Virus record (IMG/VR): IMGVR_UViG_3300005670_000014
Span: 24,786-88,785 of that record
From: a virus
Lineage: Duplodnaviria; Caudoviricetes
Reading direction: 5' to 3' (one strand)
Length of the DNA stretch: 64,000 bases
Part shown: piece after piece, positions 370-18,513 of the stretch
Position numbering within the stretch: the stretch's first letter is position 1
Layout of the letters: every line of letters starts with the position of its first letter
The notes under the pieces: model-generated
What the model was told of the DNA's origin: nothing
What the model saw: the letters and a program-made list of their open reading frames with translations, nothing else
Databases searched by the model: none
Translations under genes and position numbers: made by a program

Positions 370-430
370 GTTGTACTGGAATATACAGATGTATCTTCCA
401 GTACAACCACTCTGTATTGAGTGGTTGTAC
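370..430 (-). promoter_or_regulatory. overlapping double-hairpin element, copy A
   Basis: Long stem 370-381/396-407 and 12-bp short stem 401-412/419-430 share an arm; just upstream of the RBS of the 178-348 gene. Confidence 0.65.
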
Positions 431-435
431 TTTTA

Positions 436-777
436 CTAGATGTTCATTAACATTCTAGCAATTTTTCGACCCACCTGCTCTACATTGTTAGCCTTCACTA
501 CGAACACATCTTGTCCATAAGCCGTCTTGAGTGACAGTCCGTTGGTAGATTGAAGCGCCACCAAATCTTCAATCAATGAATCTTCCATGCACACCAGCAT
601 CGGAATGTCCAGCATCCTTAACACATTCACCAGTTCACCTATGCCCGGTGTGGTTGCGGCAACTTCCATCTTTCCACCAATCGAAACCATGGTAAAGAAT
701 TTGGATGGATTGTGAAAGTTTCTTGCTTTGGGAAGTATCTTGGACGTTTCGTAGTCTTGGCGATTTTCAATCATCAT
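436..777 (-). CDS. hypothetical 113-aa protein
   Basis: ORF track 436..849, start trimmed to the ATG after GGAGAATTA. Confidence 0.7.
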   Translation of the reverse strand: MMIENRQDYETSKILPKARNFHNPSKFFTMVSIGGKMEVAATTPGIGELVNVLRMLDIPMLVCMEDSLIEDLVALQSTNGLSLKTAYGQDVFVVKANNVEQVGRKIARMLMNI

Positions 778-795
778 TAATTCTCCGATTAGTGG

Positions 796-867
796 GGGTA
801 TATCACACAATACAACAAATCTGCTTGCTGTATTGTGTGATATACCCACATCTTATGATGTGGGTAT
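796..867 (-). promoter_or_regulatory. overlapping double-hairpin element, copy B
   Basis: 19-bp perfect stem 796-814/829-847 and 11-bp stem 842-852/857-867 sharing ATACCC. Confidence 0.7.
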
Positions 868-872
868 TCAGT

Positions 873-1076
873 CTAGCGGTACTGTTGTGTTCGGTAATTC
901 TTCCAGCTTTTGACTTGGTATGAACTTCTGACCCAATCATCCCATGCATTGGGAAGGTTACGTGCGGATCTGGCAGCACGTAATTTGATATTGACATCAA
1001 ATTCTTTTGAGTCAATAATCAGACCTGTCCACAGTTTACGCTCTTGAGTCGTTTTGGGGTGACGGTAATAAGACAT
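873..1076 (-). CDS. small basic phage protein (LPNAWDD...SWK..R..QY)
   Basis: ORF track; AGGAG RBS; motif resembles a recurring phage hypothetical family (from memory). Confidence 0.7.
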   Translation of the reverse strand: MSYYRHPKTTQERKLWTGLIIDSKEFDVNIKLRAARSARNLPNAWDDWVRSSYQVKSWKNYRTQQYR

Positions 1077-1086
1077 GATTCACTCC

Positions 1087-1344
1087 TTAATGTTGTCCAG
1101 AATCTCGGACGCGCCAAGTGTAACCATCATCATCTACACCGACGCACTCCAACAACTGCAATGAACTCCCTAATTCTTCCAGTACAGTATTGAGTTTGTT
1201 CTTGATGGGTTCCATGTCATCCCAATACATGTGATCTGGTATAGCTTCTCCGTAAGCTATGACCGCATCTTCATTAATCTCGGATTCTAGCCAATCCATA
1301 ATTTCTTGATCGTGCAACTTGCCAGACCATTCGATCTTTAACAT
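1087..1344 (-). CDS. acidic hypothetical 85-aa protein
   Basis: ORF track; packed between minus-strand neighbours. Confidence 0.7.
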   Translation of the reverse strand: MLKIEWSGKLHDQEIMDWLESEINEDAVIAYGEAIPDHMYWDDMEPIKNKLNTVLEELGSSLQLLECVGVDDDGYTWRVRDSGQH

Positions 1345-1384
1345 GTTAGTTCTCCGTAAAGTGCCATCCTTGGCAATGGAATCA

Positions 1385-1594
1385 TTAGTTTACTTTAACA
1401 ACACAACCATCTTCAATGGTTGCAGTAGCATACCATTTATGAGGCTGTGGGTAGTGTGGTCCTTCCAATGCTACCTTACCATTCTTGGGAGTATTGCCAC
1501 CAAAAGGTCCGGGCTGGAAAATGGTCACGCGATCACCTTTGGCAATTGCTTCCTTCAAAGCTTTCTTTGTTTGAAAATTGGTGGAAGTATACAT
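1385..1594 (-). CDS. phage hypothetical protein (NFxTKKALKEA...QPGPFG...LEGPHYPQPHKWYA)
   Basis: ORF track trimmed to the ATG after GGAGAATTAAC; motif recalled from other phage genomes. Confidence 0.75.
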   Translation of the reverse strand: MYTSTNFQTKKALKEAIAKGDRVTIFQPGPFGGNTPKNGKVALEGPHYPQPHKWYATATIEDGCVVKVN

Positions 1595-1630
1595 GTTAAT
1601 TCTCCAAGTTGTTCGTGGGTTGCGCAAAAT

Positions 1631-1672
1631 TGGCGCAATCGCAGTGTATCACGCCAATGAAGATTTTGCAAT
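1631..1672 (-). promoter_or_regulatory. early promoter P1
   Basis: TTGCAA-18-TACACT with extended -10 TG and downstream GCGCCA. Confidence 0.55.
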
Positions 1673-1675
1673 GAA

Positions 1676-1849
1676 TTATACTAAAAACACAGTCAAAATC
1701 TTGAATGTGTTTAAAGTAAAATCTTGGCTGAGTAAATTCTCCACAGCCAATCTTGCCATTTCAGCGCATGTTGCGCCAAATCGAAAAGAACTTTTACGAA
1801 TACTGTTCTTACGAGTCACAGCAATGTACGTAATTCTGAATTCGTTCAT
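1676..1849 (-). CDS. hypothetical 57-aa protein (MNEFRITYIAV...)
   Basis: ORF track 1676..1969 trimmed to the ATG after GGAGAATTAGTC; promoter P2 lies in the trimmed part. Confidence 0.55.
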   Translation of the reverse strand: MNEFRITYIAVTRKNSIRKSSFRFGATCAEMARLAVENLLSQDFTLNTFKILTVFLV

Positions 1850-1886
1850 GACTAATTCTCCAAGTTTTCCAGTGCTTACACCATGC

Positions 1887-1927
1887 TGGCGCATGGCAAT
1901 TTTAACACGGCATTTAAGAGTTTGCAA
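1887..1927 (-). promoter_or_regulatory. early promoter P2
   Basis: TTGCAA-actctt...-17-TAAAAT, TG extension, GCGCCAG 6 nt downstream. Confidence 0.65.
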
Positions 1928-2091
1928 ATAATACTTGACAACTAACTTTAGTTTCTGTATAGTGAACACACTCCGTAGTAAGAGAAAAGAGTGCTAAAGA
2001 TTTTATATCAGGTTGCTTTGTTTGATGTTCGGTTCTGCACTCCGATTACTACCTTCAAACAAAACAACCTTTTTATTTGGAGATTTTTAAA

Positions 2092-2973
2092 ATGATTACG
2101 TTAAAACGTCGAGAAATAAAGCCCGTTTTAGTTTCCAATCAAGACGGTAAATTGAAAACGGATTCTTTAATTGTGGCGCGAGTGTTTGAAAAAGAGCATT
2201 TTAATCTGATGCGTGATATTAGAAACATTACAGAATCAGATACGTATCTGAAGCGAATTAAAAATGGTACACAACCCAATTTTGAATTGTGCTTTAGAAT
2301 CAATGAATTAGCCAATGGTAAAAGAGTTCCTTACTACGAAATGGATCGTCAAGGTTTTGAAATTCTGGCAATGGGCTTTACGGGTGAAAAAGCACTAGAA
2401 TGGAAATTTAAATATTCTGATGCATTTGCTGCAATGGAAGAATTGTTGAAAAAGGAGCGTATTGTTGTTCAAGATAATCCGTTCAATTTGGAAGAGTTAG
2501 GTTTGGGATTGTTGCAAGTTGGATCTGAGCAACGACAAACAGCTAAACAGGTGCGTTGTCGTTGGGTGAACATCTTGCAAAATTCCATTGGTTGTGGAAA
2601 CATCTGGGTTTGTCGTTTGACTAATGAAATCTACCAAAGTTTGTTGAATTGTCCGCAAGCAAACGCCAGAAATTTTCGTCAGCACATGAATCTTCCATTG
2701 ATCTCTGCCATATTTTTGACGCGGGATCAATTAGAGGGCCACATACAGTCTTTCGTTACCGACATTGAATTGAGTGCAATCAGATTGTATTCTTTAAATC
2801 GTGAAGTCACCTTTGGCGAAATTCGGGAATTTATGTTGGGACAAGCTAAGATGTACCATAAGCAGTTGGTACGAATTGCACAGCAACCACCTTCAGCATT
2901 AGTGTTTGATCATGAATACAATGTGGTGCCAATTCTTCCATACCGTGGAAGAAGGATGCAACAAACAGAGTAA
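2092..2973 (+). CDS. rha: Rha-family phage regulatory protein with C-terminal helical extension
   Basis: TDSLIVARVFEKEHFNLMRDIRN and YEMDRQGFEILAMGFTGEKALEWKFKYSDAFAAME are typical Rha motifs; GGAG RBS before ATG 2092. Confidence 0.88.
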   Translation: MITLKRREIKPVLVSNQDGKLKTDSLIVARVFEKEHFNLMRDIRNITESDTYLKRIKNGTQPNFELCFRINELANGKRVPYYEMDRQGFEILAMGFTGEKALEWKFKYSDAFAAMEELLKKERIVVQDNPFNLEELGLGLLQVGSEQRQTAKQVRCRWVNILQNSIGCGNIWVCRLTNEIYQSLLNCPQANARNFRQHMNLPLISAIFLTRDQLEGHIQSFVTDIELSAIRLYSLNREVTFGEIREFMLGQAKMYHKQLVRIAQQPPSALVFDHEYNVVPILPYRGRRMQQTE

Positions 2974-3082
2974 TACACTCCACTCTGCCAATACGCCGGG
3001 GTGATGTAAATTTTCATCTTAATCATTGCAATTCATCAGATTTTACAGATAAAGTCTTAACGCCACTTCTCAATCTCGCCCC

Positions 3083-3105
3083 AAAAATCCCGCCCGAAGG
3101 CGGGA
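3083..3105 (-). terminator. intrinsic terminator
   Basis: On the minus strand TCCCGCC-TTCG-GGCGGGA followed by TTTTT. Confidence 0.8.
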
Positions 3106-3120
3106 GTGGAAGATCATAGT

Positions 3121-3240
3121 TTAAACTGCGTGATAATCTCCGGTGAACGAATTGGGCGGGTTAATGATTTCTACAATAATCATCGACCCGATCAGATAGT
3201 ACGTGTAACCCGGATATTGAAACGTAGTAAAAGGCAGCAT
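3121..3240 (-). CDS. 39-aa mini-protein (MLPFTTFQYPGYTYYLIGSMIIVEIINP...)
   Basis: Translated by hand; GGAGAATT RBS; ends just before the terminator; similar to its upstream neighbour. Confidence 0.55.
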   Translation of the reverse strand: MLPFTTFQYPGYTYYLIGSMIIVEIINPPNSFTGDYHAV

Positions 3241-3251
3241 ACAATTCTCCG

Positions 3252-3395
3252 TCACAATAAGTTCAGTTCTAAATCCCACAATGGGAAGGTGAAAACCTTG
3301 TACTCATTGACGGGTTGATGAATCTGCATGACGCAATGTTCAGCCAGCAGATAAAATGTTACGTCATCACCTGGCAAAGCGGCAAATGGTAGCAT
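3252..3395 (-). CDS. 47-aa mini-protein (MLPFAALPGDDVTFYLLAEHCVMQIHQP...)
   Basis: Translated by hand; GGAG RBS; ungapped similarity to 3121-3240. Confidence 0.55.
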   Translation of the reverse strand: MLPFAALPGDDVTFYLLAEHCVMQIHQPVNEYKVFTFPLWDLELNLL

Positions 3396-3406
3396 GTAAG
3401 TCTCCA

Positions 3407-3712
3407 TTATGGTTGGAAACCAAATTCAGAATCATCGGGGTCGTCATAGCCCCCTTGTTCCGGGCATTCTTCATCGTGCGTATCGGGGTCACAAACACCA
3501 CCACAATCTGCGCACACCCACACGCTGTTCTCTTTGGACGTGGCAAATCGGTCATAACGACCTTTTGTTTCCAGCGGGTAATCTTCCGTGAGTGCCTTTT
3601 GTATGGTTTCGTGGTATGCCGTAGCACACCCAGTTTCTTCATCACATGGGAAAAATCCATCTTCCGACCGATAATCTTCCCAACCGGGGCAACCCGTATT
3701 GAACATGCACAT
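3407..3712 (-). CDS. acidic Cys-rich 101-aa protein (CxxCxxxC)
   Basis: ORF track trimmed to the ATG after GAGGAGAATT; about 25 D/E versus 6 K/R. Confidence 0.7.
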   Translation of the reverse strand: MCMFNTGCPGWEDYRSEDGFFPCDEETGCATAYHETIQKALTEDYPLETKGRYDRFATSKENSVWVCADCGGVCDPDTHDEECPEQGGYDDPDDSEFGFQP

Positions 3713-3725
3713 GGTAATTCTCCTC

Positions 3726-3947
3726 TTACGCGGAATAGCGATTAATGATCTGACGATCCACGATGTAATCAAACCCTTGCCGATCTACATCGGCCAGCGT
3801 GAATAATGGACGACTCTCTTCATCCAGCACCACAATGGACACTAGATTTTCACGATGGTCTTGTGCCAACAATTCGTTAGCCCATTCTACCAACGCATCA
3901 AATGACGAATCGTTCTTCCATTGTGCAAATGACATGGCGCGAAGCAT
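3726..3947 (-). CDS. hypothetical 73-aa protein
   Basis: ORF track trimmed to the ATG after GGAGAAATT. Confidence 0.65.
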   Translation of the reverse strand: MLRAMSFAQWKNDSSFDALVEWANELLAQDHRENLVSIVVLDEESRPLFTLADVDRQGFDYIVDRQIINRYSA

Positions 3948-3985
3948 ACTTAATTTCTCCGTAGTGTTGGGGTGTTTACGCTTAC

Positions 3986-4026
3986 TGGCGTAAGCGCAGT
4001 TTAGCACGGTTTAAAAGAGTTTGCAA
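3986..4026 (-). promoter_or_regulatory. early promoter P3
   Basis: TTGCAA-actctt...-17-TAAACT with TG extension. Confidence 0.65.
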
Positions 4027-4332
4027 CTATGGAACGATCTTGGGTGTACGAAGTACCACAAATTCTTCCAATGTCGCACCGAGTTCTTCCATTTTGTCGG
4101 CAGTGATCTCCATACCCCGTAAATCTGCTGGAATGTTTAATACCAGATGGAAGTAACGTCCTTGTCGATCCCAAATTTCGGCAGCGAGATGGATGGGTAG
4201 TGTTCCCAACACCACGTCACCTTTTTCGACAGTCTTCACATCGAAATGCTCAACAATCTGAGCATCAAAGCCTTTACGCGCTGCCCAATCTTTGGCACCT
4301 TGATGCCGGGTCACAAAATAAGTCTTAGCCAT
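4027..4332 (-). CDS. csx16: Csx16 (VVA1548)-family protein, putative cyclic oligoadenylate ring nuclease
   Basis: 101 aa with FVTRHQGAKDWA, VEHFD, GDVVLGTLPIHLAAE, YFHLVLNIPADLRGMEITADKMEELGATLEEF, matching the Csx16 pattern as I recall it. Confidence 0.82.
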   Translation of the reverse strand: MAKTYFVTRHQGAKDWAARKGFDAQIVEHFDVKTVEKGDVVLGTLPIHLAAEIWDRQGRYFHLVLNIPADLRGMEITADKMEELGATLEEFVVLRTPKIVP

Positions 4333-4472
4333 GTTAGCGATCTCGTCTAAAAGTAGTGGACAAAATATAAAGAATCATGCCGAAAATAACGGCAAGCATA
4401 ATGATCTCACTCATCAAACACCTCCATTAATTCGTGGATAAAAGCCATCCTTGGCTCAAGAATGCTGTTTAG

Positions 4473-5123
4473 CTAGTTTTTGAATTGCCGCCAGCACTCT
4501 CTAACATGGTCTACAACATTCATCGGATTATGACCTCCGATCTTGTTGCGTGGATGTTCTTCATCAATCCATGGGGAGTCGTTATACTCTAGCCAGTGCC
4601 AAAATTGGTTTTGGACTCTGGCTACAGCTTCTTTACCACCCAAGTCGCCTTCACACGCGACTAGCCATTCACGTCTGACGTATACGGGATGCGTCGGCAG
4701 TATAAATTCTGCTGATGTAGCGGGGATGCTACCTTCGGGCCGCTTGACATCTACCCACCACGCATACGGTGCGTGTTGGTAATTCTTCAATTCACTATCT
4801 AACACTGGAAAATCTTCCAGTGCTGATGCACCCAAGCACAAGTAGCCGTAGTAATCTCCATCCTCAACGAGTTCGTCATCATCCGTGGGAAACGGAATCT
4901 CGGCAATGAACACAGTGATCTCCACCGGACCCAATCTGTGTTCCGGGTCAATGGTATCCCACAGCGGGATGGGTGTCTTAACCTTCCATAGTTGGCCCAC
5001 ATTTGCATCTTTCGGCTGTACATGTGCAAAGTCTGCCCGTGCTTTGGTGGTGCGGGCGATGGCGTCTTTCACGAACGCTGGAACTTCTACCACTTGAGCA
5101 GTGGCCTTTTGAAACTCGGACAT
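4473..5123 (-). CDS. hypothetical 216-aa protein
   Basis: ORF track; GGAG RBS; preceded by double-hairpin copy C. Confidence 0.75.
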   Translation of the reverse strand: MSEFQKATAQVVEVPAFVKDAIARTTKARADFAHVQPKDANVGQLWKVKTPIPLWDTIDPEHRLGPVEITVFIAEIPFPTDDDELVEDGDYYGYLCLGASALEDFPVLDSELKNYQHAPYAWWVDVKRPEGSIPATSAEFILPTHPVYVRREWLVACEGDLGGKEAVARVQNQFWHWLEYNDSPWIDEEHPRNKIGGHNPMNVVDHVRECWRQFKN

Positions 5124-5154
5124 GGAGTATCTCCGGGTGGATGAAACAACAAAT

Positions 5155-5220
5155 GGGTTTTAATGCAAGCATACCTTGTGACGACATGCTTGCATTAAAA
5201 CCCACTCTTGCGAGTGGGTT
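5155..5220 (-). promoter_or_regulatory. overlapping double-hairpin element, copy C
   Basis: 18-bp stem 5155-5172/5186-5203 and 9-bp stem 5199-5207/5212-5220 with GCAA loop on the minus strand. Confidence 0.7.
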
Positions 5221-5227
5221 ATGGGGA

Positions 5228-6103
5228 TTACGCCGCCTTGGCCGCCTTGGCCGCTTTGCCCGACTTGCCAGTCTTGACAACTGGGGGCTTGATGACCTTA
5301 ACGGTAGCATCCGGCTTGGCAGTCTCGGGCTTGGTCTCTGCCGCTTTAGCCAAAGTAGCGGCCTTTTGCGCCTGGACTTTCTTCATCGCCGCTTGTGCAG
5401 CCGTGGCGAAGTCTTTAGCACCCGACAATCGCTTGGCAACGGTCAAGCCACCTTCCGCTAGCAAGTTAGCAAATTTCTTTTGCGACTCAATGGCTTGCAG
5501 CACCTCATCGGTGGGCAACAATTCTTGATTTTCATGGAAGCAGCGAATCTCGGATGCACTCCCATCCATAGCGTAGTCTTCCATGCAGCCGTAATCTAGT
5601 GTGGTATACGCTGATGGAATCTTAGTAATGGGCGCACCCACCTTTACTGAACGGGAAGTACCTACCCACAACGATTGGGTAGCGGCCATTCTCCAGCTTT
5701 GCGCCCACGCAATGAACTCTTGTGGCCTACCCGTCTTGGCAGCATCCTTACTCTTGTGCCGATCCACCTTTGACTTGCTGTTGGCGTTAAACGCCAATAC
5801 AAATCTGGGTGCTGTTCCGCAAGCATAGCCTACGCTCACGGGATCGGCAATCGTTTGGTATTCTTTGGGGATGAATTCCCCTTTTTGGAAAGTTTCCCAG
5901 TTCTCCAGCATCCATGCGATTGTGGGGAAATTCCCTGCGTTGCACAAAAGGTGTGCGAACATATTCGCTTCCATGCTCTTATTACTCACCGCCAAACCTG
6001 CGGTTGCCGTAGCACACCGTTTCAATTCTAGCCCGGTGATCTGTTTGATCAGTACCAAAGCCTCTTCGCGTTGTTGCTTCACTAAACTGTTATCTTTAGC
6101 CAT
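5228..6103 (-). CDS. hypothetical 291-aa protein with Lys/Ala-rich basic C-terminal tail
   Basis: ORF track trimmed to the ATG after GGAGAATATAGC; ends ...KTGKSGKAAKAAKAA. Confidence 0.8.
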   Translation of the reverse strand: MAKDNSLVKQQREEALVLIKQITGLELKRCATATAGLAVSNKSMEANMFAHLLCNAGNFPTIAWMLENWETFQKGEFIPKEYQTIADPVSVGYACGTAPRFVLAFNANSKSKVDRHKSKDAAKTGRPQEFIAWAQSWRMAATQSLWVGTSRSVKVGAPITKIPSAYTTLDYGCMEDYAMDGSASEIRCFHENQELLPTDEVLQAIESQKKFANLLAEGGLTVAKRLSGAKDFATAAQAAMKKVQAQKAATLAKAAETKPETAKPDATVKVIKPPVVKTGKSGKAAKAAKAA

Positions 6104-6171
6104 GCTATATTCTCCGCAGCGCATTAAAGCGCATTTAAAAGTCTCAAAAAAAGCGCCATGCATTGCCATGC

Positions 6172-6212
6172 TGGCGCAAATGGATTTTAGCACACTCGAA
6201 AAGAATGTGCAA
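6172..6212 (-). promoter_or_regulatory. early promoter P4
   Basis: TTGCAC-attctt...-17-TAAAAT, TG extension, GCGCCAG 6 nt downstream. Confidence 0.65.
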
Positions 6213-6221
6213 CGGTTAATT

Positions 6222-6389
6222 TTAAAATTCTGGCAATGCAATTACATCCAGCACTTCATCTGCCCATGTAGCTGCTTTCAGCACCTGATGCTTAGCATCC
6301 GCCTCATTAACAGCCATCAGACACAAATTGATTTCCGTTCCATGGAAATCATCTTCAATAACATACACCACCACGATGAATTCTTTCAT
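6222..6389 (-). CDS. 55-aa acidic protein (MKEFIVVVYVIEDDFHG...)
   Basis: Translated by hand; GGAGAATA RBS; directly after promoter P5. Confidence 0.6.
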   Translation of the reverse strand: MKEFIVVVYVIEDDFHGTEINLCLMAVNEADAKHQVLKAATWADEVLDVIALPEF

Positions 6390-6426
6390 GACGTATTCTC
6401 CGTAAATGCGCTAGTCCACTATGTGC

Positions 6427-6467
6427 TGGCGCGTTTGCAGCATAACATGCTGCGGAAGAGTTTGCAA
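6427..6467 (-). promoter_or_regulatory. early promoter P5
   Basis: TTGCAA-actctt...-17-TATGCT, TG extension, GCGCCAG 6 nt downstream. Confidence 0.65.
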
Positions 6468-6475
6468 CTATTTCG

Positions 6476-6685
6476 TTAAGAGTGTTGCAAACTATTTGCA
6501 GAACTAAATGCACGATCTCCGTGCTTATCCCAACATGATGGGTAAATCACCTGTTGTTTCCGGCTCTCATAAAAGCCGGAACCATCCAAAAAGAGCGTCA
6601 ACATTACATCGGGTGCTAAGATGATGTTGATGCCAGTATCTTTGTATCCAAATGATGCGAATTTCTCCGCCATTGAACCGTTCAT
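6476..6685 (-). CDS. hypothetical 69-aa protein
   Basis: ORF track; AGGAG RBS; overlaps the upstream stop. Confidence 0.6.
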   Translation of the reverse strand: MNGSMAEKFASFGYKDTGINIILAPDVMLTLFLDGSGFYESRKQQVIYPSCWDKHGDRAFSSANSLQHS

Positions 6686-6870
6686 GTTAACTCCTTATAA
6701 ATCACATCGTCCAAATATCTGGACGCTTGGGTGTAAGTGACTTTAAATTCTTTAGCAAAGTCACACAAAAAGGCGTGGGTTGCAGCGGGGGACGTCTTGC
6801 CACGCAAGATGAAATCCATCACACGCTCTTTGCATTTCAAATCCAATGCGCTCATCTGACTCATTTCCAA
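6682..6870 (-). CDS. hypothetical 62-aa protein
   Basis: ORF track; coupled to its neighbours. Confidence 0.6.
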   Translation of the reverse strand: MEMSQMSALDLKCKERVMDFILRGKTSPAATHAFLCDFAKEFKVTYTQASRYLDDVIYKELT

Positions 6871-7172
6871 TCCTCCATCTCTGCTAGTTCATCGTAGTAC
6901 AACTCTGTTTCCTCGTCATAGTCATCATCTGACCATTTCTGGGCAGTAGTTTGGAATGATGAAAAATTAGCCAAGTTGCTCAAGTAGAACATTTTGAACA
7001 TCTTGGTTTTGCCGGTAACATCATCCCAATCCAGCAAGTTTTCTTCGTACACATACGATCCATCCTTGAGTTTATGGATGACATCCGATTCTTCCATGGG
7101 TTCGAATCTGGATTCGACAACATTTTGTAAATCTAACTGCTGATTTTCTACAACCATGTGGGCTAACGACAT
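6861..7172 (-). CDS. acidic 103-aa protein (C-terminus WSDDDYDEETELYYDELAEMEDWK)
   Basis: ORF track trimmed to the ATG after GGAGATATT; preceded by double-hairpin copy D. Confidence 0.7.
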   Translation of the reverse strand: MSLAHMVVENQQLDLQNVVESRFEPMEESDVIHKLKDGSYVYEENLLDWDDVTGKTKMFKMFYLSNLANFSSFQTTAQKWSDDDYDEETELYYDELAEMEDWK

Positions 7173-7194
7173 GACAATATCTCCAGTTGTGGAT

Positions 7195-7252
7195 GGGTAC
7201 ATCGGTATATACATTTGCATATACCGATGTACCCACTCTTGCGAGTGGGTAC
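7195..7252 (-). promoter_or_regulatory. overlapping double-hairpin element, copy D
   Basis: 16-bp stem 7195-7210/7219-7234 and 10-bp stem 7229-7238/7243-7252 with GCAA loop. Confidence 0.75.
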
Positions 7253-7260
7253 TAAAACTC

Positions 7261-7497
7261 TTACACGGCCATATCCAATCGGAAAACCATCTTCCGATAG
7301 CTTTCCAACTTCTGCCGCTTGGGCTGCAAGTAGTCTTTACGATCACGGTTGCGCGATCCCATCTTGGAACCATCGCGCACTTCCTTAGCGCAATTCTCCA
7401 ACAGCCGTGCCAACCACATGGCATCTCCAGTTTGCCATGCGTGATACAGCGGCAAATCTTTGGATTTCGTTTGTGGACTACGGAAAGTTCTGCTCAT
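7261..7497 (-). CDS. basic hypothetical 78-aa protein
   Basis: ORF track trimmed to the ATG next to the upstream stop. Confidence 0.6.
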   Translation of the reverse strand: MSRTFRSPQTKSKDLPLYHAWQTGDAMWLARLLENCAKEVRDGSKMGSRNRDRKDYLQPKRQKLESYRKMVFRLDMAV

Positions 7498-7498
7498 T

Positions 7499-7738
7499 TC
7501 ACACCTCCCAAGCTGACCAATCAAAGTCGGCAGATTTCACAATCCAGTTGCCATCTTTAAAAATGGCGCTTTTCGCTTCCAAACCTTTGCCGCATTTCTC
7601 CACGGCGGCAACTGCATAGTCCATGACTTCTTGAGCCGTAGCATCCTTACCAACCCGTCCGTAGTAGACGGGGTTGGACTCTCCCCATTGGACAAGCACT
7701 TGCCCTTTGGGGTTGGGCAGTTTAAATTCTTTCAGCAT
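7499..7738 (-). CDS. hypothetical 79-aa protein
   Basis: ORF track trimmed to the ATG after GAGGA; preceded by double-hairpin copy E. Confidence 0.7.
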   Translation of the reverse strand: MLKEFKLPNPKGQVLVQWGESNPVYYGRVGKDATAQEVMDYAVAAVEKCGKGLEAKSAIFKDGNWIVKSADFDWSAWEV

Positions 7739-7760
7739 GGCATTTTCCTCTTTTATGGAT

Positions 7761-7823
7761 GGGTACATCAGTAAGTACATCTTGCACTTACTGATGTACC
7801 CACACCTTTCACAGTGTGGGTAC
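7761..7823 (-). promoter_or_regulatory. overlapping double-hairpin element, copy E
   Basis: 16-bp stem 7761-7776/7786-7801 and 10-bp stem 7796-7805/7814-7823; homologous to copy D with compensatory changes. Confidence 0.75.
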
Positions 7824-8069: not shown

Positions 8070-8293
8070 TACAGTTTCTCCACGACGATGGTGATCGTTT
8101 CCTGCTCGTTTGAGCAACTAAATCCTTCGCGCACACTTCCTTGTATGCTATACCCTTTTTGCTGCAAAAGCCCGCGAAGCTCTTTCAAAAACTGCACCAT
8201 CTTGGTGCCATCTTTGACATCTGTCATCCGACGACCTTGCCGCAGCACATCTACAGCATACGAATTACGGGGTAAAATACCTGTCAAGTTCAT
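8069..8293 (-). CDS. hypothetical 74-aa protein
   Basis: ORF track trimmed to the ATG after GGAGAATTGAC. Confidence 0.65.
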   Translation of the reverse strand: MNLTGILPRNSYAVDVLRQGRRMTDVKDGTKMVQFLKELRGLLQQKGYSIQGSVREGFSCSNEQETITIVVEKL

Positions 8294-8370
8294 GTCAATT
8301 CTCCGTGGTTGTGGGGGTAAAGTCTCTTCATTCGGTGGTACGAATGAACGCACCACCTGATGAAATTACT

Positions 8371-16054: not shown

Positions 16055-16222
16055 ACACTGTACAGTATGCAGTGTCGCAATCGGTTGACATGCAGCACAA
16101 GTTATACATGCAACCACCTGATACATGATGGGTGCATGTTACGTCAATACAATGCAACAGTCCTGGAATTGTGACTGTAGCATTGTTGGGTTGTTTCATG
16201 TAAAACAAAACTAGGACAGCAT

Positions 16223-16250
16223 TAGTTTTGTTTCATATGAAACAAAACTA
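16223..16250. repeat. 28-bp perfect palindrome with GTTTCATATGAAAC core
   Basis: TAGTTTTGTTTCAT|ATGAAACAAAACTA. Confidence 0.85.
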
Positions 16251-17753: not shown

Positions 17754-18080
17754 GATTAACTCTCCAATTTTGCAGCTTTGCGGAATTGCTTGGCTTGCGC
17801 TTGGAATGATGCGAGCATTGTGCCAAGTTCCAAAACTATTTTATAAGTTCCTATTTTCAAACGATTTTTATTTTCATTGCTTTGAATTAGCTTTTGCTTA
17901 ATTGTTGTTTGCAATAAAGCGCTGTAGTGATAACTTGCTGATTTCATAGAAAAATAAATATTTTCAATCCAGTTTTTGAAACTCGAAAACAGGGTGACTA
18001 GCATGGGCATATTGTGACGTTGCGCGTCAACTTTTGACATTCACAAACACTAGGCGAAGCCCTTGGAGACAGCGCTTATT

Positions 18081-18271
18081 CTATAAACCGAACCTAACGC
18101 CAATTTTTCAAAGCTTGTTTCATACGAAACAAGCACATAGGACTTAATCTATAAACCCTAGCAGAAATCTAACACCAATTTTTCAAAACATTGTTTCATA
18201 TGAAACAAAATAAAACCTTGACCATACACAAAACCAAATGACCACTTCAAAGTAGTGTTTCATATGAAACA
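18081..18271. repeat. imperfect tandem units of about 65-80 bp, each ending in a GTTTCATAYGAAAC palindrome
   Basis: Palindromes at 18113-18134 (1 mismatch), 18191-18208 and 18256-18271; CTATAAACC...CTAAC.CCAATTTTTCAAA shared by the first two units. Confidence 0.8.
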
Positions 18272-18513
18272 AACCAAATTATGTACTGCGTATTTTTCTC
18301 TCACATTAGCTAACCATGCCAAATACCTCACCTTCTTCTCTAACCACCCACTACCACCAATTACCATTATATCTAACACATGTCACACAACCTAACAACC
18401 CAATACTCACACACTGACACAGTGATTCCATTCGTAATTTTTCATCTAGTCAAAACAGTTCCATAAAAATTTACAGATTATTTCTAACACCTGAAATTTC
18501 GTTTCAGTAAAAT

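Follow-up and report, generated by a model that had tools for sequence, protein, structure and literature searches.

Five copies of a compact element, in which two adjoining hairpins compete for one arm, were found between the small genes of an uncultured activated-sludge phage. The window considered here is a stretch of 64,000 nt, corresponding to bases 24786-88785 of an 88.8-kb viral contig (IMG/VR record IMGVR_UViG_3300005670_000014, designated G000 below). As far as sequences can tell, covariation, an asymmetry in favour of G.U pairs and loops of the GNRA type indicate that the selected entity is an RNA folding on the sense strand. Early regions of phages are rich in orphan genes, and the way in which expression of these genes is set is poorly understood.

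Architecture and covariation of the elements

On the minus strand, which is the sense strand of these genes, the elements displayed the layout X-loop-X'-Y-loop-Y'-X. The first copy of X (5'X) pairs with X' to form hairpin 1, which is directly followed, with zero spacer, by hairpin 2. The inner part of hairpin 2 is a Y:Y' stem of 10-17 bp, to which six to nine pairs are added when X' is taken from the 3' arm of hairpin 1 and joins the second copy of X (3'X). Both full hairpins need X' and are thus mutually exclusive. This layout had been announced in a preliminary description of the same DNA, and it was encountered at all five sites:

A: 370-430, minus strand; 5'X 419-430, loop 413-418, X' 401-412, Y 391-400, loop 387-390, Y' 377-386, 3'X 370-376
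B: 796-867, minus strand; 5'X 857-867, loop ATAA 853-856, X' 842-852, Y 825-841, loop 819-824, Y' 802-818, 3'X 796-801
C: 5151-5220, minus strand; 5'X 5212-5220, loop GCAA 5208-5211, X' 5199-5207, Y 5183-5198, loop 5176-5182, Y' 5160-5175, 3'X 5151-5159
D: 7193-7252, minus strand; 5'X 7243-7252, loop GCAA 7239-7242, X' 7229-7238, Y 7217-7228, loop 7213-7216, Y' 7201-7212, 3'X 7193-7200
E: 7759-7823, minus strand; 5'X 7814-7823, loop 7806-7813, X' 7796-7805, Y 7783-7795, loop 7780-7782, Y' 7767-7779, 3'X 7759-7766

The elements were 60-72 nt long, started 5-9 nt past a stop codon and were all intercistronic and in sense orientation. Hairpin 1 comprised 9-12 bp in these five copies. The long form of hairpin 2 reached 17-27 bp in the eight elements available once those of related phages were included (see below), against 10-17 bp while hairpin 1 is formed. 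Stems were continuous and displayed at most one isolated mismatch, yielding near-perfect helices. A Shine-Dalgarno sequence was close by, as initially described, but it followed the element after 8-16 nt and was thus slightly nearer than the 10-25 nt first given.

The arm TGGGT/ACCCA was shared by B, C, D and E, as previously noted, and was replaced by GTGGTTGTAC/GTACAAC in A. Elements D and E had not only X and X' but also 14 nt of 3' flank in common. Hairpin 1 was characterized by a conserved stem (CCCAC..GUGGG) with a loop that was mostly GNRA: such tetraloops occupied six of the 11 hairpin-1 loops found across three phages (GCAA five times, GUAA once). The distance from CCCAC to GTGGG varied from 8 to 12 nt, and the bases right after hairpin 1 were ACAUC, AUAUC or ACUGG.

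At its other end, the element merged with the leader of the next gene, 3'X overlapping an ACCCA/CCCAC motif just upstream of the ribosome-binding site. This motif was present in 24 % of the leaders of the gene block, versus 8.5 % of random sequence windows, and lay 6-15 nt upstream of the Shine-Dalgarno sequence. It was found after promoter-proximal hairpins as well as after double hairpins, for instance at window positions 1595-1675, 3948-4026 and 8294-8370. The last of these stretches also displayed, on the minus strand, two interleaved inverted repeats (GGTGGT..ACCACC and TTCATTCG..CGAATGAA), which might fold into a pseudoknot or into alternative hairpins ahead of the gene that begins at 8293.

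Folding of the five copies was far more stable than that of shuffled sequences, with z-scores of -5.7 (A), -8.1 (B), -5.4 (C), -6.0 (D) and -7.0 (E), and none of 200 shuffles folded as well. A strict script run over the 88.8-kb genome retrieved the five elements and a single different-looking site (window 16201-16250), and the same architecture was absent when the whole genome was shuffled 15 times with dinucleotides preserved. The additional site, near a strand-switch region, was an X-loop-X'-loop-X arrangement made from TAGTTTTGTTTC / GAAACAAAACTA without Y segment; it looked like a member of a separate palindrome family, outside the double-hairpin family.

Elements D and E differed, as had been reported, by three compensatory pairs (G-C to A-U, U-A to A-U and A-U to G-C). 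They were aligned over the 20 pairs of the long hairpin with the copies from a related phage (G002) and from a contig fragment (L037), both presented below. In this alignment 97.5 % of the cells were paired and seven of the 20 pairs had changed on both sides, which was matched by none of 500 shuffles. Covariation also extended to three partners, as 5'X, X' and 3'X changed in concert at their outer bases across independent copies (GUAC/GUAC/GUAC, AUAC/GUAU/AUAC, AAC/GUU/AAC and CACC/GGUG/UACC). Under symmetric scoring, stems contained 22 G.U versus six A.C, the latter being confined to outer ends, and the sense strand folded better in eight of ten copies, with a total advantage of 41.9 kcal/mol.

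A covariance model built solely from the D, E, G002 and L037 alignment recovered A, B and C as well as both double elements of a second relative (G001), and sense scores exceeded antisense scores. Element A reached 39.7 bits in sense versus 18.5 in antisense, B 38.5 and C 24.5; the 100.5 bits of D belong to one of the four building sequences of the model. No other convincing match was found when three whole records were searched. The earlier suggestion that structure is what is selected is supported by this covariation, by positional conservation and by the unrelated sequences of hairpin 2. The elements had further been called unannotated, and this was borne out: searched over the whole window, Rfam 15 gave no match at gathering thresholds, and E-value mode returned microRNA-precursor models only, with 21.7-28.8 bits versus thresholds of 80-100.

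The two alternative folds were compared by blocking either copy of X. In seven of the eight elements, the difference between them was -3.5 to +1.2 kcal/mol, a near-equality that partly follows from the layout itself. Pairing of the Shine-Dalgarno sequence across folds revealed no consistent case, leaving a hiding of the ribosome-binding site unsupported.

Related phages and gene junctions

Relatives were drawn from IMG/VR and from an activated-sludge assembly, and three phage lineages were compared. Two contigs from uncultured phages shared gene order with this region: G001 (111 kb), whose flanking proteins were 53-58 % identical, and G002 (65 kb), whose element sequence was also found on activated-sludge contig L038. 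Fragment L037, with a flanking protein 99 % identical, carried slightly altered copies of C and D. Protein homologues amounted to 19, several of them on contigs of 39-67 kb. A metagenome scan added one fragment of a near-identical strain and a second G002-type copy, a D-type pattern search of viral contigs returned G002 only, and a genome scan for further relatives gave nothing useful. Exact searches of viral contigs with hairpin-1 20-mers uncovered only ordinary terminators with a T-tract in two unrelated phages. Close cultured relatives of G000 were absent from the phage record collection, whether sought by DNA or by capsid protein.

G001 displayed double elements at about 6690 and 9270 of its locus L003 and a lone hairpin 1 at 6165 and 8817, while G002 contained one double element and one lone hairpin 1, bringing the relatives to three doubles and three lone copies. 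The site of E, upstream of the gene family of 7499-7738, was kept in both G002 (L033, 3532-3622) and G001 (L003, about 6690-6765). In the latter, hairpin 2 was unrelated in sequence, yet it still overlapped hairpin 1. The place of C was occupied by a lone hairpin 1 in G002. Altogether, the eight doubles stemmed from at least six independent sequence lineages, and all of them lacked a spacer and shared the arm.

Two single hairpins deserve separate description. At 6165-6260 of L003, the lone hairpin 1 (ACCA loop) precedes a predicted hairpin covering the Shine-Dalgarno sequence and start codon of the next gene. Outside the window, 6.5 kb before its start (G000 18229-18296), a short palindrome (GGTGTACACC) comes directly after a single hairpin of 13 bp (CACCACACTCCAT..ATGGAGTGTGGTG), and the whole could be the remnant of a double hairpin without its Y-loop-Y' core.

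All five elements were located at variable gene junctions:

A: between 436-777 and 178-348, both of them genes restricted to G000
B: between 873-1076, a conserved gene, and 436-777, a gene restricted to G000
C: breakpoint against G002
D: G000-only genes on both sides
E: one additional gene in G001 and G002 at this site

About 15 of 25 junctions were non-conserved region-wide (about p 0.08 for five out of five). Since the region is so highly mosaic anyway, the enrichment of elements at such junctions is weak.

The surrounding gene block

The head genes of G000 were HK97-like and one open reading frame encoded 4662 aa. The elements belonged to a minus-strand block of small genes of approximately 36 kb, which is expressed from sigma-70-type promoters (TTGCAA..TG.TAAACT) and displays very uniform Shine-Dalgarno sequences (GGAGAA). 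Early promoters (TTGCAAACTCTT..TG.TAAACT) were observed at window positions 1850-1930, 3948-4026, 6104-6221 and 6390-6475, with a hairpin, often with a GCCA loop, at each start site. Many other single hairpins without U-tract were encountered between cistrons of the early block. In the middle of this block, a gene for a Rha-family regulator (2077-2973; Pfam PF09669, 1.4e-23) lay on the opposite, plus strand.

Possible function and comparison with known systems

The elements are tentatively considered here, at a confidence somewhat short of even, as an mRNA punctuation module for processing and stability, which travels with orphan gene cassettes and whose long form would be a likely target of ribonuclease III (RNase III). 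They would act in cis, as sense-strand RNA structures within a long multi-gene phage transcript made by host polymerase. Hairpin 1, which is devoid of a U-tract and also stands alone in relatives, would cap the 3' end of the upstream cistron. An RNase III-type, double-strand-specific nuclease would cleave the full-length duplex, which spans about two helical turns; the freed X' would then re-pair with 5'X into a protective 3' hairpin on the upstream message, and the downstream cistron would retain an open C/A-rich leader with its Shine-Dalgarno sequence. Neighbouring cassettes would in this way obtain separate stabilities and translation. Such cutting and the subsequent re-pairing of hairpin 1 would account for the sharing of an arm. 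At the DNA level, cassettes may in addition be exchanged through microhomology offered by the conserved X arms.

The early RNase III sites of phages T7 and T3 (R0.3, R0.5, R1, R1.1 and R1.3) are repeated intercistronic hairpins of the host-transcribed, multi-gene early mRNA. Those of T7 span about two helical turns and are conserved in structure more than in sequence; an internal loop directs a single cut, which leaves a protective 3' hairpin. The elements resemble them in that their long form provides an intercistronic duplex of approximately 20 bp. Unlike the T7 sites, each of which is one composite hairpin with an internal loop, they consist of two abutting, arm-sharing hairpins forming a near-perfect helix. 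For the RNase III-type site put forward in the preliminary description, cutting is plausible in view of the near-perfect duplex of 17-27 bp, but the loop of the T7 type is absent from the element stems.

That absence counts against the punctuation module, as do several other observations. The fold balance of the G002 copy was +7.7 kcal/mol and uncompensated, the D copy of L037 had lost 3'X pairs, and its C copy displayed an uncompensated U-C mismatch. The balance is thus not conserved among close variants, which argues against a tuned switch. Of the two-state RNA switch suggested earlier, the alternative folds of near-equal energy are real, but regulated switching is unsupported, as close variants shift the balance by several kcal/mol. 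Moreover, single-stranded DNA likewise accommodates G.T wobble, so that strand asymmetry alone is compatible with a hairpin of sense-strand DNA; template switching that lengthened a palindrome could have produced the shared arm as a side effect; and the comparison comprises three phage lineages only.

A more elaborate form of punctuation, in which a translation-gated, self-resealing mRNA switch of a new class would sit on mobile orphan gene cassettes, is judged unlikely. Here, hairpin 1 would hold X' and leave hairpin 2 too short (10-17 bp) for a double-strand nuclease, until the ribosome finishing the upstream gene, 5-9 nt away, would open hairpin 1 and allow X' to pair with 3'X (about 22 bp), whereupon the message would be cut.

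Passive, independent hairpins, acting as exonuclease barriers or cistron insulators, form an unlikely alternative, in which the shared arm would be functionless and result from template-switching palindrome growth copying X' into a new 3'X. The many single U-less hairpins between other cistrons of the early block fit this explanation, as do the stand-alone hairpin 1 of relatives and the drift of fold balance among close variants. It accounts poorly for the zero spacer and shared arm of all eight doubles from their separate lineages, for an extension that retains pairing via G.U changes and does not decay, and for the overlap of 3'X with the recurrent leader motif.

A role at the DNA level appears quite improbable. 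The X and X' arms would in that case be recombination points for gain, loss or swap of orphan cassettes, and the RNA fold would be secondary. The junctions listed above (D, B and A beside G000-only genes, C at the breakpoint against G002, and the extra gene of G001 and G002 at E), the sequences common to D and E, and the lack of any Pfam match for the genes flanking the elements are in line with recombination. The junction enrichment is weak, however, shared homology is limited to 7-14 nt, and compensatory changes, G.U asymmetry and GNRA loops point to a selected folded single strand.

The recombination model recalls the PeSL cassettes of T4-type phages, which combine a sigma-70 early promoter with a terminating stem-loop and are conserved over about 100 bp (PMC2839356, PMC4122927). 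Both systems are short repeated intergenic modules flanking orphan genes in variable regions, with a stem-loop preceding the Shine-Dalgarno sequence, and both are candidate recombination points (PMC2839356, PMC4122927). In contrast to PeSL, the elements are without promoter and mostly without terminator tail, and only 7-14 nt of sequence are shared: no promoter-like site was found inside the five elements, from which the TTGCAA..TG.TAAACT motif of the phage itself was also absent, and a terminator-like U-rich tail was present only in C (hairpin 2), A, B, D and E being without U-tract. The PeSL-like cassette boundary proposed earlier consequently survives only as far as the location at variable junctions is concerned, the link to breakpoints being statistically unconvincing.

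Control of transcription elongation is very improbable, whether hairpin 2 were a terminator with hairpin 1 as its antiterminator or the element acted on RNA polymerase in the manner of put RNA. A run of seven U closes the G001 element at L003 6692, and formation of hairpin 1 would shorten the terminator stem; partial U-tracts also occurred in C and in the G002 copy. Five of the eight doubles, however, lacked a U-tract. As in terminator/antiterminator attenuators, X' pairs with either of two partners in exclusive folds. Contrary to attenuators, most elements are without U-tract, a leader peptide and a ligand pocket are lacking, and X' has two partners of identical sequence.

The put RNA of phage HK022 is about 70 nt long and consists of two adjacent stem-loops, which act in cis and without protein in nascent early RNA (PMC9378689). 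Its size and paired stem-loops on early transcripts are those of the elements, and favour a put-like action (PMC9378689). It has a conserved sequence, its stem I contains bulges and a triplex, and it is present twice per genome just downstream of PL and PR (PMC9378689), whereas the elements occur five times, after open reading frames and not after promoters, with perfect stems and a stem 2 unrelated between copies. The elements thus differ from the T7-type site, the PeSL cassette and put RNA by the defining features of those systems.

Finally, hairpins in single-stranded DNA of the lagging-strand template, serving priming or another replication step, or X half-sites serving as a protein operator, are scarcely credible: DNA hairpins tolerate the G.T wobble mentioned above and the sense strand of the block would be the lagging-strand template if a fork moved left from the strand-switch region at about window position 18000, but distances from stop codon to element and from element to ribosome-binding site are fixed, loops are of the GNRA type, and the variable half-site distance of 8 to 12 nt is unsuited to a rigid dimeric protein, so that a DNA operator was rejected.

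Start-associated leader repeats of cluster K mycobacteriophages (SAS and ESAS) have no known function, and the 17-bp repeats of ESAS are conserved in sequence (PMC3203893). Like ESAS, the elements concern a subset of genes and comprise a leader motif near the start codon, an upstream imperfect inverted repeat, a variable spacer and a single orientation (PMC3203893). Unlike ESAS, for which no competing second hairpin is described, they comprise a hairpin 2 that is unconstrained in sequence and overlaps with hairpin 1.

Several other candidates were discarded. Intrinsic terminators were rejected because the U-tract is absent after hairpin 1 and in most copies; canonical U-tract terminators are present elsewhere within the same minus-strand block, so that the U-less hairpins of the elements are not host terminators. 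The loop of hairpin 2 (GCAAG/GCAAA) resembles the -35 box TTGCAA, but inspection by eye revealed no -10 box at workable spacing. Integron attC sites are imperfect palindromes following each cassette, bounded by a 5' RYYYAAC and a 3' GTTRRRY consensus. The arms of the elements end in GGGTAC...GTACCC (in A, GTTGTAC...GTACAAC), an order opposite to that of attC, and do not match its consensus. A miniature transposon with target-site duplication was dismissed, as terminal inverted repeats are lacking and covariation links the internal X' to the flanking X. Translational bypass of the T4 gene 60 type was excluded likewise, as the direct repeats sit past the stop codon and the gene downstream is equipped with a strong ribosome-binding site of its own.

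The elements form a compact module, defined by structure and not by sequence, which was kept across diverged phages at cassette junctions. The covariance model derived from D, E, G002 and L037 is applicable to other uncultured phages. Should the module merely be passive, it would be a clear case of palindrome growth shaping intercistronic RNA. Should it be cut or switch folds, each cassette would carry its own rules of mRNA stability, and the element would represent a reusable natural two-state RNA part.

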